64,000 nt of DNA from Deltaproteobacteria bacterium (GCA_040218735.1 JAVJQW010000067.1:160001-224000), one strand, 5' to 3'; shown: positions 148 through 55,871, counted from the stretch's first letter. The notes: a model not told the origin generated them from the sequence alone. Numbers and translations are program-made.

Positions 148-1994
148 GCGCCGACACCCACCACCCGTCCAACGGACACCCCTCGGACGAGCACCCTTCC
201 AACGAGCAGATCGCGCTGTTCGTGATGCGCGCGTTCGATCAGGTCACGTTCGATGACATCGAGTCGCACCTCGACGGCTGCGACGCGTGCGCCGATCGAC
301 TCGCCGCCGAGGCGCAGCTCGAGCTCGAGATGCAGGCCCTCGCGAGCACGACGCAGTGGTGCCCGCGGTGCGGCGTGGCCTCCGTCGCGACGTGCCTCAG
401 GTGTGGCATCGCCCTGAAGCCGGGAGGCTACGAGGTCGAGGCCGTCCTCAGCGAGTACGGCCAGGGCCGCACCTACCGCGGACGCGCCCCCGACGGTTCG
501 CGCGTTCGCATCAGCGAGCTCGAGTTCTCCCACGTGCGCGACCACGGCGTCATCGAGTCGTTCGTGAAGGACGCGACCCTCCTCGCGCAGCTGGACCACC
601 CGAACATCCCGAAGCTCGTCGACAGCTTCCAGGAGGGCGACGACGAGCACCTCCGACTGTACGCCGTGGAGGCGTGGGTCGAGGGTGAGCCGCTCGACGA
701 GGTGCTCGACAACCACCGCTTCGACGAAACCGAGGCTCGCCACATCGCCGAGCAGGTCCTCGACGTCCTCGTCTACCTGCAGGGCCTGTCGCCGGCGATC
801 TTCCACCGGGACGTCCGCCCCCAGAACCTGCTGTTCGCGGAGGGCGGCACGGTGTACCTGCGCCAGTTCGCGAACGCGCGCGACATGAGCGTCACCGGCG
901 CGTTCACCCTCGCGGGCCACACCGGTTACATCCCCGCGGAGCAACACCTCGGCGTGGTCGACGCGACGAGTGACCTCTACGGCCTCGGCGCCACCCTCGC
1001 GCACGTCCTCACACGGCGCGCGCCGCTCCCCGGCGATCCGGGGCTGGAGCGCGCGAACGTCTCCCCCGAGCTCGAGGCCTGGCTGAAGCGCCTCATGGCG
1101 ATGCGGCCCGAGGCGCGCTTCCCGTCGGCGGTCGCGGCGCGCGACGCCTTGTTCGAGCCTGCACCCCCGAAGCGACGACGCGTCACCGCGTTGTCCGTGG
1201 CCACGGCGATGATCCTCGCCGCCGCCGCCGCGTTGGCGGTCGCCGGCGTGACCTTCCTGACGTCCCCCACCGTTCCGCCTCCACCGCCGAAGCCGGCGGT
1301 GCCGAAGACCGGCGTGTTGCACTTGGAGTCGAACCCGAGCGGCGCGCGGATCTTCGTGGACGGCGTCCCGATGGGGACCACCACGACGCCCGCCGACCTC
1401 TCCGAGCTCACGTTCGGGCGCACCTACGCCATCCGTCTCGAGCTCGACGGGCACGCGCCGTACACCACCGCCAAGACGATGGACGAATCCCTGGACGGGG
1501 ACATCGTGCACCACACCTTCGTCGCGCTCGCCCCGCCCGAGGACACGCGCACGCCGCCGCGTCCCACCAAGACCCGTTCACGCCCGAAGCGCCCCCCGCC
1601 TCCCGCGGCGCCCGCACCGCCGGCGACGAACAGTCCGCCCGGCACCACGGGCGAGCCGCCGGTCGACGAGGTCGAAGCGCTGCGGTCCCGTCCGTTCGGC
1701 GACTACTCCGATCGTCCGTCGACGAAGCCCCCCATCCGCGACATCCCGGACGGACCGCCGGGGTGTCAGGTCGACCGGGACCGACCGCCGGGTTACGTCA
1801 CGCTCGCGACCAAGCCCTACGCGGAGGTCTTCTGGGGCAAGCGGCGCCTCGGACAGACGCCGCTCGCGCGCGTCCAGCTCCCGTCGGGCTGCATCGAGCT
1901 TCGCGCGATTGCGATCGACGGTTCGAAGCGACGCACGGTGCGCGTCGAAGTTCGACCGAGTGAAGTCGCGATCTATCGCTTCGCTCTCGAGTGA
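144..1994 (+). CDS. Membrane Ser/Thr kinase-like protein (probable pseudokinase) with N-terminal zf-HC2/ZAS finger, TM helix and PEGA domain(s)
   Basis: HLDGCDAC (HxxxCxxC) and a CPRC..CLRC ribbon. Kinase motifs LDHPNIPKL, HRDVRPQN, GHTGYIPAEQ, SDLYGLG. Hydrophobic TM segment, then PEGA-like LHLESNPSGARIFVDG and a Pro-rich linker. Confidence 0.85.
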   Translation: MSADTHHPSNGHPSDEHPSNEQIALFVMRAFDQVTFDDIESHLDGCDACADRLAAEAQLELEMQALASTTQWCPRCGVASVATCLRCGIALKPGGYEVEAVLSEYGQGRTYRGRAPDGSRVRISELEFSHVRDHGVIESFVKDATLLAQLDHPNIPKLVDSFQEGDDEHLRLYAVEAWVEGEPLDEVLDNHRFDETEARHIAEQVLDVLVYLQGLSPAIFHRDVRPQNLLFAEGGTVYLRQFANARDMSVTGAFTLAGHTGYIPAEQHLGVVDATSDLYGLGATLAHVLTRRAPLPGDPGLERANVSPELEAWLKRLMAMRPEARFPSAVAARDALFEPAPPKRRRVTALSVATAMILAAAAALAVAGVTFLTSPTVPPPPPKPAVPKTGVLHLESNPSGARIFVDGVPMGTTTTPADLSELTFGRTYAIRLELDGHAPYTTAKTMDESLDGDIVHHTFVALAPPEDTRTPPRPTKTRSRPKRPPPPAAPAPPATNSPPGTTGEPPVDEVEALRSRPFGDYSDRPSTKPPIRDIPDGPPGCQVDRDRPPGYVTLATKPYAEVFWGKRRLGQTPLARVQLPSGCIELRAIAIDGSKRRTVRVEVRPSEVAIYRFALE

Positions 1995-49687: not shown

Positions 49688-52291
49688 TCACCCCACGCGA
49701 GAGAGGGCCAGGCGCTCGGCGTAGCGCCGCTCGAGCTCGGCGGCGAGCGCCGCGTGCTCGGCGAGGTCCGGATCCCCTTCGAGGATCGCGAAGGCTTCGT
49801 CGCGTGCGCGTTCGAGCACGGCGGCGTCGCGGACGAGGTCCGCGAGGTGTAGCTCGGCGAGGCCGGACTGACGGGTGCCGAGGATCTCCCCGGCGCCGCG
49901 CAGCTCGAGGTCGCGCTCGGCGACCTCGAACCCGCTCGACGTCTGCGCGAGGACCTGCACGCGCTCCGCGCCCTCCTTCGACTTGGCGTCGACGAGGAGC
50001 ACGCAGCGCCCGGTGTACTGGCCACGCCCGACGCGCCCGCGGAGCTGGTGGAGCTGGCTGAGGCCGAAGCGCTCGGCGTGTTCCACCACCATCACCGACG
50101 CGTTCTCGACGTCGACGCCGACCTCGACGACCGTGGTCGACACCAACACCGCGACGTCCCCCTTCACGAACGCGTCCATCACCTCGGCCTTCTCGTCCGG
50201 CTTCATTCGGCCGTGGAGCAGGCCCACGCGTTTGGGTGCAAAGCGGTCCGCGAGCTCTTCGACCGCGTCGCTCGCGGCGGTGAGATCGAGCTTCTCGGAG
50301 GCCTCCACCAGCGGGAACACGACGTACGCCTGGCGCCCCGCGGCGAGCTCGTCGGAGACGATGCGGTACGCGCGGCGACGATCCTTCAGCGGGTAGACGT
50401 TGGTCTCGGTCGGCGAGCGCCCGGGGGGGAGCTCGTCGATGATCGTGGTGCGGAGGTCGCCGTACGCGGTGAGCGAGAGCGTGCGCGGGATGGGGGTGGC
50501 GGTCATGACGAGCACGTCGGGGGTCGCGTCCTCGCGTTTGGCGGACAGCGCGGCGCGCTGCTCCACGCCGAAGCGGTGCTGCTCGTCGACGATAGCGAGG
50601 CCGAGGTCCGCGAAGCGCACGGCGGGTTCGAGGATCGCGTGGGTGCCGACGAGGACGTCGACGGTCTTGGCGCGGAGCCCCGAGAGGATCTCGGTGCGCG
50701 CCGCCGCTTTGGTCGAGCCGGTGAGGAGTCGAACATCGAAGCCCGCCGGCTCCAGGAGCTTCAGCGCGTTCTTGAAGTGCTGCGACGCGAGGATCTCCGT
50801 GGGCGCGAGGATCGCCGTCTGGCGGCCGGCCGCCTGGACGAGCGCGGCGGCGATGAACGCGACGGCCGTCTTGCCGGAGCCGACGTCACCCATCAGCAGC
50901 CGGTTCATCGGGCGTGACGCGGCGAGGTCCTTGGCGATCGTCTCCAGCGCCCGCGCCTGCGCGCCGGTGAGCTCGAAGGGGAGCAGCCGCTCGGCGAGCT
51001 GGGACCAGGTCGCGTCGGGGCGGTGGGTGAGCCCGACGAGCGCGTCGCGCGCGGTGCGGGTGCGTGCGAGCGCGAGCTGGAGGAAGAAGAGCTCGTCGAA
51101 CACGAGGCGGGCGCGCATGCGTTCGAGGGGGCCGCGCGGGTCCGTGGTGTCGGTGGGCTCGGGCCGATGCGCGCGCAGCACCGCCTCGGCGAGCGGCGCG
51201 AGGCCGAGGCGTTCGCGGAGATCTTCGGGGAGCGGATCCTCGATCGCCGCGGCGGCGACCTCGGCGAGGGTCGTGACGATCTTCGTGAGCGTCTTCTTCG
51301 GTACCGCCTGGATCTCCGGGTAGACCGGGACGATGCCTTCGGGCGCGGGCGGCGCGTCGTCGACGTGCACGCTCATCTCCGGGTGCACCATCTGGCGCAT
51401 CGCGCCCCACTTCGTGACCTTGCCGAACACGACGACCTCGACGCCGCGCGCGAACTTCGCCTCCATCTGGTTCTTGGAGAAGCGGAAGAAGCGGCAGCTC
51501 AGGGTGCCGGTGTCGTCGCGCACGGCGATCTCGAACATGCGCTTCCGTCGCCCCATCATCCGCATCGAAGCGGCGGAGACACGCCCGCGCACCGCGGCGT
51601 GCTCACCTTCGACGAGGCGGTCGATCGTCGTGAACTGCGTGCGGTCCTCGTAGCGCGTGGGGAGGAAGAACAGCGCGTCCTGGACGGTCACGATGCGGTT
51701 CGACGCGAGGCGCTCGGCGGTCTTCGGCCCGACGCCGACGAGGTCGGCGAGGTGGTGTCCCGGGGTCGCCTGCTCCATCGGGACGCGCTTCGCGGGCCGC
51801 TCGGCGACCGCCGCCTGAGGCGCCGCCTTGCGAACGCGGCGCGCGGTGACGGCGGGCTTGAAGAGCTCGTCTTGCTGCGCGGCGGATTTCGTTGGCGCCG
51901 GGGCGCTCCGGGATTTCGCGGTCCCGGCGGGTTGCGTGGGTGCCGCGGATTTCGTTCGTGTGGCGACGCTCTCGGGTCGCGCGGCCCGCGTCGCCTTACG
52001 CGGCGCGGCGGATTTCGTTGGAGTCGCGGGGCCGTCGCCGAGGGCGGCGCGGATGCGGTCGCGTTTGGTGTGGTCGTCCGCAGCGTCGATGCCGTCGACG
52101 CAGGTGAGGACGTGTTGGAGCTGGGCGCGTTGCGGTGCGTCGAGGTGGGGTTCGGCGGCCTGCGCGGCGGCGCGAACGGCGGCCTCGACGCCGCGGATCA
52201 CCGAGAGGTTCGAGAAGTCGTTCTTGGCGGCGAACCGAAGGGGGCGGAGGACCGGCGCGAGCGGATCGTCTCGGTCAGACGAACTCGACAC
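49688..52291 (-). CDS. recG: ATP-dependent DNA helicase RecG
   Basis: [57 protein letters not shown]. Confidence 0.98.
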
Positions 52292-52754
52292 GGACGATCT
52301 CGTACTCCTTTTCGCCCTTCCGCGGCAGCCGTACGGTGACGGCGTCCCCGACGGACTTCCCGATGAGCGACCGCGCGACGGGCGCGGTATACGAGATGAG
52401 GCCGTTCTTGGCGTCCACCTCGTCGGTTCCGACGATCTGGTAACGCGCCTCCTCCTCGGAGTCGGTGTCCATGACGGTCACGGTCGCCCCGAACACCACC
52501 TTGTCGCCGGACAGCTTCGTCGGGTCGATGATCTCGGCGAGCGCGAGCTTGCTGTCGATCTCGGCGATGCGCCCCTCGATGAAGGACTGCTTCTCCTTGG
52601 CGGCGTGATACTCGGCGTTCTCCGACAGGTCGCCGTGGGCTCGGGCCTCTTCGATCGCGGCCGTGGTGGCGGGGCGTTCGACGGACCTCAGGTGTTTGAG
52701 CTCGTCTTTGAGGAGGTCATAACCTCGGCGGGTCATGGGTTCTCTGTCCGACAT
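52275..52754 (-). CDS. greA: Transcription elongation factor GreA
   Basis: [35 protein letters not shown]. Confidence 0.97.
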
Positions 52755-52806
52755 GTCCTTTTGGGTCTAGGTCATCTTTGGTGGGGGTTCAATGGTTTGC
52801 TTGGTG

Positions 52807-52848
52807 GGGGTGGGAGTGCCCAGGCTCGGGGTGGGAGTGCCCAGGCTC
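52807..52848. repeat. Perfect 21-bp tandem duplication (ggggtgggagtgcccaggctc x2)
   Basis: Copies at 52807-52827 and 52828-52848, abutting the left end of the large palindrome. Confidence 0.95.
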
Positions 52849-53779
52849 GGCTGCGCTTTGGGTGGCGCGGCCGGGGGGCAGGCGGAGCGACCGTTTCCGG
52901 TCGCCGTGTCTCGGCCCCTTCGCTCCGCTCGACCTCCCTCGCGGCGACCAAAAACTCCAAATCGCTCCGCCGACCCCCCGACCGCGCCCCCCTCGCTCCG
53001 CATGACGAGCTGCCCTCTCCCGACCGAGCCGGATTGCTAGCGCCCGCGTGGGTGGGCGACCCCGTTTGGGTGATTCAGCGGCTTGGTGCCCAGGGGCCCG
53101 CTCCGCGGCATCGGGCGGGCGGGGGCCCTCGGGCCGGCTTGCTCTACGACGCGTGAAGACGAGGACCGCGAAGAACGCGATCCGCGCTCGGTGGAGCTGA
53201 CGGCGTGGCGGACCGTGGTCGGGACCCCCGCCCGCCCTCGCCGCTCCGCTCAAGACGTCGGCAGGATCGTGGGAGGCTCGCGCGACCTCGTCTTGGTGGA
53301 CCGCACCGCGCTGAGGCGCCCGCAGAAATTCGGACGACACGCGCGGTGCCCGAGCGTCCCCGCCGACTCGCCTAGCGGAGCGGAGGCGGCGGGCGCGACG
53401 ATTCCGAAAGACGGTCCGCCACGAGTCGAGCGCGTCCTCTTGCCTATCTCGACCGCAACGCCGTGGGCTTCGCGTGTCGCCGATCTGGCCGGACCGAGGG
53501 CGTCGCGCCCGCCGCCGGAGCGGAGCGAGCCCCTGGGCAACGGGTCGAACCATCGCAGCGCGGGATCGTGGCACCCCCGGGTACAAAACCGAGTGATTGC
53601 GCCGTCAGGACGGCTACTCGTGATGCGGAGCGGGAGAGTGCGGTCGGGGGGCTGGGGGAGCGTTTGGAGATTTGGGTCGCCGCGGAGGCGGTCATCGAAG
53701 CCGTAGGAGTCCGGACACGGCGACCCGAAGCGGTCGCTCCACCAGACCCCCGGCCGCGCTCTCCAAAGCGCAGCCGAGC
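52845..53779. repeat. 935-bp imperfect palindrome (foldback element), centre about 53312
   Basis: Exact reverse-complement blocks: 52845-61/53763-79, 52884-93/53731-40, 52899-910/53714-25, 52974-85/53640-51, 52994-53003/53623-32, 53087-97/53529-39, 53204-16/53411-23, 53241-50/53374-83. Confidence 0.92.
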
Positions 53780-53789
53780 AACCTCTCCC

Positions 53790-55871
<2,082 letters not shown>

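Follow-up and report, generated by a model that had tools for sequence, protein, structure and literature searches.

A 1-kb palindrome between hppA and greA of a myxobacterium is probably a decayed foldback of an IS1182-type insertion sequence

Almost all of the gap between greA and hppA in a 64,000-nt stretch of Deltaproteobacteria bacterium DNA (GCA_040218735.1, JAVJQW010000067.1:160001-224000; hereafter the window) is one imperfect palindrome. A preliminary description, made from the sequence alone, had taken the steady register of its two arms as a sign of selection on a long rod-shaped RNA or single-stranded DNA (ssDNA), and had named a large structured non-coding RNA (ncRNA), a transposon-like foldback and a regulatory element of the hppA-greA transcript as candidates. 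Our comparisons within the window's own assembly (G000; myxobacterial, 11.6 Mb in 70 contigs, with 140 contig ends) and with relatives (the congener G001; G006, from another genus of the same family; and G003, G004, G005, G007 and G008) favor the second of these. We put at roughly 85% the probability that the palindrome is an old, decayed, transposase-less foldback of an insertion sequence (IS) of the IS1182 type, that is, a piece of mobile-DNA debris.

According to this explanation, a foldback would consist of two inverted IS1182 left ends of ~500 nt, each reaching from the terminal repeat through the first transposase codons, with the two meeting head-to-head at about the tenth codon. The parent IS would be the source of the conserved content of the arms, namely the terminal repeat, a 16-17-bp stem and the sequence that precedes the transposase start. 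Because both termini carry the terminal repeat of the transposase, the foldbacks can presumably be moved in trans by the intact 490-aa enzyme of that parent. The window copy would have landed at a CTAG containing the hppA stop codon, duplicated this tetranucleotide and split a tight hppA-greA pair.

A dispersed foldback family and its parent element

The best-conserved part of the palindrome, a core of ~175 nt (53373-53547), recurs at about 10 other places in G000 with 70-77% identity, often as inverted pairs. An nhmmer search with the copy on contig C60 returned 51 matches in this assembly, most places being matched on both strands. Family sequence is present on 17 contigs, at 23 places in all; 14 of these places lie at a contig end or within ~60 nt of one, and the 22 places other than the window carry homologous sequence with common termini. 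These dispersed relatives, together with termini shared with an IS, flanking CTAGs and the near adjacency of greA and hppA in relatives, bear out one candidate of the preliminary description, a non-autonomous foldback resembling a MITE (miniature inverted-repeat transposable element). From end to end the window copy can be matched to the C60 copy (84 and 97.5 bits), and MAFFT alignment gave an identity of 55-60% between its arms and every other arm; by these sequence matches it is a diverged full-length member of the family. It measures 1,019 bp, and the other full copies 901-1,073 bp. Further palindromes of the family end at contig ends; those delimited elsewhere in G000 are listed here by contig.

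C64, 127059-128032: arm identity 75% (self-comparison)
C60, 260697-261700: arm identity 82% (self-comparison)
C41, 262569-263469: outer 219 nt of the arms 93% identical
C23, 222953-223744: outer 234 nt of the arms 87% identical

The arms fall into two types. Type A comprises the left arm of C64, the right arms of C60 and C41b and four contig ends; type B comprises the right arm of C64, the left arms of C60 and C41b and four others. Arms of different type are 74-82% alike and arms of the same type 76-97% alike. The two types are distinct, yet each is conserved across copies, and therefore the foldback had imperfect arms by the time it was multiplied as a unit.

The parent element is represented on contig C57 of G000, where an uninterrupted open reading frame (ORF; 105-1577) encodes a transposase of 490 aa. 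This protein scores 311.9 bits against NCBIfam NF033551 (IS1182 family; cut-off 270) and lies above the cut-off of Pfam PF01609 (DDE_Tnp_1). The sequence from C57:1 to ~134, which takes in the upstream region and ~10 codons, is 86-100% identical to the centers of family copies and 79% identical to the window copy over 58 nt. Four contig ends overlap C57:1-38/39 at 97-100% identity, and two ends, those of C16 and C60, extend 214-250 nt into C57, i.e., into the transposase gene. The foldback arms stop at about codon 10 of this gene, and the gene is absent from the foldbacks. In the congener, the terminal repeat, a ~490-nt arm and the transposase N-terminus are contiguous on one contig (G001:C1014); the arm shares 78% identity with the C60 copy, and 88% of amino acids agree over the first 160 aa of the transposase. 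As the arms continue into an IS1182 transposase in the IS copies, we interpret the foldbacks as two left ends placed head to head. Beyond the transposase stop on C57, ~75 nt are left before a CTAG, and the IS right end beside this CTAG agrees with the foldback terminus in 13 of its last 15 nt (read by eye); the agreement holds for the main subfamily, the window copy keeping only the inner repeat.

A related IS of 2.0 kb was found in G006. Its transposase is ~50% identical, and its left end, of ~500 nt, begins with GAGCGTGTA beside a CTAG. Many internal-deletion derivatives of this IS, roughly 0.7-1.05 kb long, are present in the same genome. The IS itself (e.g., stretch L043, 1387-3407) is greatly expanded there: its transposase is matched ~80 times, and left ends that are 94-100% identical number at least 40. 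In a collection holding one genome per species, the best full-length relatives of the C57 transposase are 40-57% identical, several of them in Kofleriaceae and other Myxococcota metagenome-assembled genomes, and the sole closer match (88%) is partial. An IS630-type transposase, considered for the CTAG target, was rejected: PF13358 gave one match in G000, below threshold at 21.9 bits. Two further transposase-like sequences were noted in this assembly, namely a decayed copy with in-frame stops at C16:80008-80642, 61-69% identical and adjoining a family arm at the contig end, and a second DDE_Tnp_1 match (44.1 bits, open frame of 452 aa) at C36:7924-8436.

The foldback family is a major cause of fragmentation of the G000 assembly. 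Fourteen of its 140 contig ends stop inside the family (the start of C1, C50, C56 and C57; the end of C16, C27, C41, C43, C58 and C60; both ends of C26 and C55), and the true copy number is accordingly uncertain. Elements of this architecture can be expected to break other short-read assemblies in the same way. The right flanks of the C64 and C60 foldbacks (C64:128035-129100 and C60:261727-263127) lie ~2.1 kb apart on one contig of the congener, G001:C525; the corresponding left flanks are found on two further contigs of that genome. The two foldbacks stand at synteny breakpoints between G000 and G001, as would be expected if they mediated rearrangements. With flanks on different contigs, no readable empty site of the C60 or C64 copy was found in G001.

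Boundaries and insertion site of the window copy

The preliminary description gave 52845-53779 as the extent of the element. These are the limits of the palindrome; the element is larger and runs from 52771 to 53789, between two CTAGs. The features of the locus are as follows.

52771-53789: whole element, 1,019 bp, a putative non-autonomous foldback derivative of an IS1182-family IS (nhmmer homology to the C60 copy)
52767-52770: left CTAG, putative target-site duplication, the same tetranucleotide standing at 53790-53793
53790-53793: right CTAG, putative target-site duplication; 53790-53792 is the hppA stop codon (TAG, minus strand)
52771-52806: outer left terminus, GT-rich and of the C20-type subfamily (aligns locally with the G001:C1183 element at its left end)
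52807-52848: 21-nt tandem duplication of the inner terminal repeat (52807-52827 and 52828-52848, 100% identity), containing GGGAGTGCCCAGG
53373-53547: best-conserved core, equivalent to the region just upstream of the parent IS transposase start
52275-52754, minus strand: greA, 159 aa; Pfam GreA_GreB_N (1.5e-30) and GreA_GreB (2.6e-26)
53790-55871, minus strand: hppA, H+-translocating pyrophosphatase, 693 aa; Pfam H_PPase (2.2e-270)

The greA start codon is 12 nt from the left CTAG, and recG lies beyond greA.

Ends of the main subfamily carry, from the outside inward, the 21-nt outer repeat GAGGCCGTATCAGATAGCCGG, then GGGAGTGCCCAGG and then further conserved sequence. The window copy has kept the inner repeat (GGGAGTGCCCAGG...) at both ends and lacks the outer 21-mer at both. 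On the left, the GT-rich stretch of 36 nt takes the place of the outer repeat; it has no counterpart at the right end of the window copy, where the inner repeat directly adjoins CTAG. Because the left end aligns with that of the element on G001:C1183, the window copy can be assigned to a second subfamily, the C20 subtype, of which it is the only representative in G000 and the G001:C1183 element the second. The window copy, judging from the sequence of its two ends, has probably lost its right outer terminus and is no longer mobile.

The element on G001:C1183 (145-1894) is a C20-type foldback whose arms, 89-93% identical, surround an insert of ~770 nt, with TTAG on both sides. For an ORF of 211 aa in this insert (583-1218, minus strand), neither Pfam (E <=0.1) nor G000 yielded a match; it is possibly a passenger gene enclosed by two IS left ends. 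A mini-element of 57 nt at C58:156487-156543 of G000 consists of two ~22-nt terminal repeats flanking 15 nt of inner repeat. Its structure hints that the transposase may require no more than the outer ~22 nt.

Comparison of the greA-hppA interval among relatives is consistent with insertion into a short gap. Measured between BLAST match ends, the gap is 22-141 nt in G001, G006, G004 and G007 and 1,035 nt in the window; the two genes are 3.5-6 kb apart in G005, G003 and G008. The first four genomes supply the adjacent, element-free arrangement that the preliminary description had proposed to look for as empty sites. Read from the sequence, the gap in G001 is 43 nt from the greA start to the hppA stop and includes a 9-bp GC-rich hairpin, and that in G006 consists of 9 nt followed by a CTAG that holds the hppA stop, with neither element nor hairpin. 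Removal of 52771-53793 from the window leaves 12 nt and then CTAG between the genes, the same layout as in G006. Outside the terminal repeats of the family the bases are mostly CTAG, with ATAG, GTAG, CTAA and others also present, and we read the insertion signature as a duplication of 4 bp (or of TA) at YTAG. A preference for (C)TAG in a GC-rich genome would place many copies exactly at stop codons, which would explain their apparent attachment to gene ends. Replacement of a stem-loop, as described for IS1272, was prompted as a candidate by the hairpin in the G001 gap and was rejected, given CTAG on both sides of the window element and a G006 site free of a hairpin.

A number of observations weigh against the account given so far. 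The flanks of other copies match only in part (TTAG/CTAG at C60; CTGAG on one side at C64 and C41b). Intergenic sequence cannot be aligned between G000 and G001, so that the G001 site is no exact empty allele. Exact boundaries of the window element depend on the two CTAGs and on one relative, the G001:C1183 element; with the outermost 21-nt repeat missing at both ends, its termini are only partly like those of the parent IS. A single intact transposase gene was assembled in G000, where the IS left end is linked to the transposase solely by the contig-end overlaps of 38-39 nt. Finally, none of the 40 scored full-length left-end matches in G006 belongs to a foldback of two left ends.

Since the insertion splits a conserved, tight hppA-greA pair, the expression of greA in this strain has probably been rewired. 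From this it is a further step to suppose that the transposon-derived element has been co-opted by its host as a promoter, attenuator, bidirectional terminator or RNase III substrate for greA and hppA, and we consider such co-option unlikely. It gains from the geometry of the locus: the element separates genes that in G006 and G001 have 9 and 43 nt between them, respectively, so that greA transcription must come through the element or from within it, and a transcript across it is predicted to form an imperfect duplex of ~450 bp. The copy has also been kept in strains sampled by two further studies. It loses from the fact that other family copies lie in unrelated contexts, that the congener does without the element, and that mismatches compatible with G.U pairing show no strand bias (see below). 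A scan of 52650-53900 on both strands found no sigma-70-like promoter and no intrinsic terminator, which counts somewhat against co-option; it used simple consensus patterns that are crude for a myxobacterium and is weak evidence. Apart from the origin of the element as a foldback, the window copy may have come to provide greA transcription or to gate it.

Pairing between the arms and within them

The preliminary account of the palindrome itself was accurate in most particulars. Six inverted-repeat pairs share a single axis near 53312, with coordinate sums of 106624-106627. A repeat scan placed the terminal pair at 52845-52922/53702-53779 (78 nt, 83% complementary), followed inward by 52931-52978/53646-53693, 52960-52992/53633-53665, 52994-53017/53609-53632 and 53087-53158/53468-53539; a perfect 13-mer pair on the same axis lies at 53204-53216/53411-53423. 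The outermost 17 nt of the two palindrome ends are fully complementary, as had been noted, and the motif cgctccgc/gcggagcg is recurrent (repeat families D3, D12, I20, I24 and I25 of the scan). Each arm has its gcgacc...ggtcgc hairpin, at 52887-52904 and 53720-53737. The statement that no credible protein is encoded also holds, as the two longest ORFs of the element (265 and 207 aa) have no Pfam match. The arms and the local stems discussed below have the following positions.

52845-53311: left palindrome arm (repeat scan, folding and arm alignment)
53313-53779: right palindrome arm (same evidence)
53113-53237: local stem-loop of the left arm, 16-nt arms 53113-53128/53222-53237, 15 of 16 positions paired (94%), 93 nt apart
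53385-53516: right-arm local stem-loop, its 16-nt arms 53385-53400/53501-53516 perfectly paired and 100 nt apart

A large structured ncRNA or an ssDNA rod, with the long-range pairing under selection, is the reading that the fold most readily calls to mind. Folding of both strands gave -643.5 kcal/mol for the plus strand (z -15.8) and -645 kcal/mol for the minus strand (z -22.6), and none of 20 dinucleotide shuffles per strand folded as well as the palindrome. Such z-scores are very strong, but any decayed inverted duplication yields them. The second argument for this reading is that the register is held within ~3 nt despite 26% mismatches. In the alignment of the two window-copy arms (447 columns, of which 331, or 74%, are identical), 41 gap columns occur in 23 runs; the register is constant because these small gap runs roughly cancel, and its coexistence with a high rate of substitution is explicable without selection.

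The mismatches themselves carry no mark of a selected structure. The expectation that an excess of G-U pairs would identify the functional strand was not borne out: the 116 mismatches comprise 23 that would be G.U on the plus strand, 22 that would be G.U on the minus strand and 71 transversions, so that there is neither a strand preference nor an excess of structure-sparing changes. The 424 Watson-Crick pairs between the arms of the C60 copy were then followed in other full copies.

C60 vs C64: 329 pairs unchanged; 65 changed on one side (23 to G.T, 42 broken); 4 changed on both sides (2 still paired)
C60 vs C41b: 297 pairs unchanged; 23 changed on one side (7 to G.T, 16 broken); 4 changed on both sides (3 still paired)

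Compensatory changes, which covariation between the arms would have produced, number 2 and 3 in these comparisons against 65 and 23 one-sided changes. A scan of 52000-54500 on both strands against Rfam 15 gave three weak matches, none with E <0.05; their best scores (24.6, 23.7 and 17.6 bits) compare with gathering scores of 72, 100 and 49, and the models, of eukaryotic microRNAs and an archaeal small nucleolar RNA, led us to take them as noise. With the arms accounted for as IS left ends, we regard the structured RNA or ssDNA as very improbable. The selection on a long rod that the preliminary description had proposed finds no support in the strand-symmetric, mostly transversional mismatches or in the one-sided changes, which far exceed compensatory ones; on these sequence comparisons, the rod shape appears to be a by-product of the inverted-duplicate origin and not something kept by selection. 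Read in this way, the 935-nt rod is no pointer to a new large RNA or viroid-like element. Bacterial non-autonomous elements, it would follow, can be 1-kb foldbacks derived from two long left ends, and such elements can mimic structured RNAs.

The element is real DNA, backed by contigs of further studies. A contig from run X1, possibly the source of this genome, covers 52300-54200 entire with 0 differences. Runs from two further studies (X2 and X3 from one, X4 from the other) yield contigs that cover the element piecewise, those of X2 crossing both junctions (52605-52893, with 1 difference, and 53731-53894), and no contig that skips the element was found among runs X1-X4. A mis-join typical of palindromes is seen in one contig of X3, which folds back between 52962 and 53664. 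An inverted duplication or assembly artifact confined to this locus, with no transposition, is barely tenable: palindromes can arise by template switching and assemblers do mis-join at them, as in the X3 contig, but homologous sequence with common termini at 22 further places, CTAG on both sides, the X1 contig and the independent X2 contigs across both junctions all stand against it.

Pairing within each arm behaves differently from pairing between the arms. Arms of the family each contain a stem of 16-17 bp closing a loop of ~100 nt, and in the window copy the left-arm stem occupies the position homologous to that of the right-arm stem with a different sequence. We aligned 17 arm cores from G000 and G001 and found 94.1% of 287 cells in the stem paired. 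Changes on both sides were seen at 4 of the 17 stem pairs, in 25 cells, one pair occurring as C-G, G-C, A-U and U-A. The covariation score of 0.257 compares with 0.103 in shuffles and was reached by none of 500; when the partners were shifted by 1-3 columns, 29-50% of cells paired, and RNAalifold independently recovered the same stem. The sequences are related, so that several covarying cells may reflect few events, and paired transposase-binding repeats could covary likewise. Located ~60-190 nt upstream of the transposase start, the stem has direct GCGGAGCG motifs on its flanks; these are the recurring motif of the preliminary description.

We take the covarying stem, on the strength of this alignment, to be a cis-element of the parent IS that would act as DNA or RNA; it would give a poorly studied IS family a concrete cis-element. 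A more far-reaching proposal, which we put forward tentatively and hold to be unlikely, is that the IS left end is a functional structured element (stem, invariant flanking loop bases and GCGGAGCG motifs) with a role beyond that of a spacer. It could be an RNA leader controlling transposase synthesis or a DNA hairpin used in transposition. Non-coding RNAs, in a position comparable to that of the stem, have recently been tied to other IS families. If the proposal were true, the foldbacks would owe their success to the two copies of the structured element that each of them carries.

Comparison with known systems

The family shares with IS1182-derived MITEs the lack of a transposase gene, termini in common with an IS, multiple intergenic copies, a 4-bp flanking repeat and a foldback structure. 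MITEs are usually well under 1 kb. The elements described here measure ~1 kb instead of 100-300 bp, and for want of miniature size we call them MITE-like. They differ as well in construction: whereas MITEs formed by internal deletion keep a left and a right end, these consist of two complete left ends of ~500 nt set head-to-head, and their arms represent two separate variants, types A and B, copied together. A literature search, with ISfinder and most subscription journals outside its scope, found no description of a bacterial foldback or of a 1-kb IS1182-derived element. In Paracoccus, the captured IS1182-family element ISPse1 is listed as having 16-bp inverted repeats and 4-bp direct repeats (PMC3281130).

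The staphylococcal IS1272 belongs to the same transposase family. Its IS1272L form carries a 25-bp tandem duplication of the left end (PMC5678879), and this parallels the 21-nt duplication at 52807-52848. According to PMC5678879 and PMC4923244, IS1272 inserts beside gene ends at terminator hairpins, and it replaces or partly deletes the target stem-loop without duplicating the target. The window element, in contrast to IS1272, has CTAG on both sides, and the G006 site offers no room for a hairpin.

Eukaryotic foldback elements such as FB and Galileo have long inverted arms, mostly lack a transposase and occur at rearrangement breakpoints (PMC3688188). The likeness is one of architecture only, with arms that make up nearly the whole element and two G000 copies at synteny breaks; the transposase superfamily and the domain of the host are unrelated.

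A REPIN consists of two short REP hairpins and is linked to a Y1 (HUH) transposase. Like them, the present family is palindromic, non-coding, dispersed and intergenic, but its arms are 500 nt long and run on into a DDE transposase gene of the IS1182 family. The REPIN/RAYT affinity raised in the preliminary description does not hold, as none of the 5 Y1_Tnp matches in G000 (two on C21, one each on C24, C29 and C58, the last at C58:38714) is near a family copy.

A second short dispersed repeat, of ~85-100 nt with CTAG on each side and a small hairpin, gave 47 profile matches in G000 (E <=1e-3). Examples are C57 (stretch L041) 1635-1732, C23:222870-222955, C1:165-282, C9:490490-490607, C39:74257-74373 and C55:327-492. 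This repeat often adjoins the outer end of a foldback or IS, and it has GAGGCCG in common with the termini of both. It could be a genuine MITE that uses the same transposase, or else a favored target for insertion.

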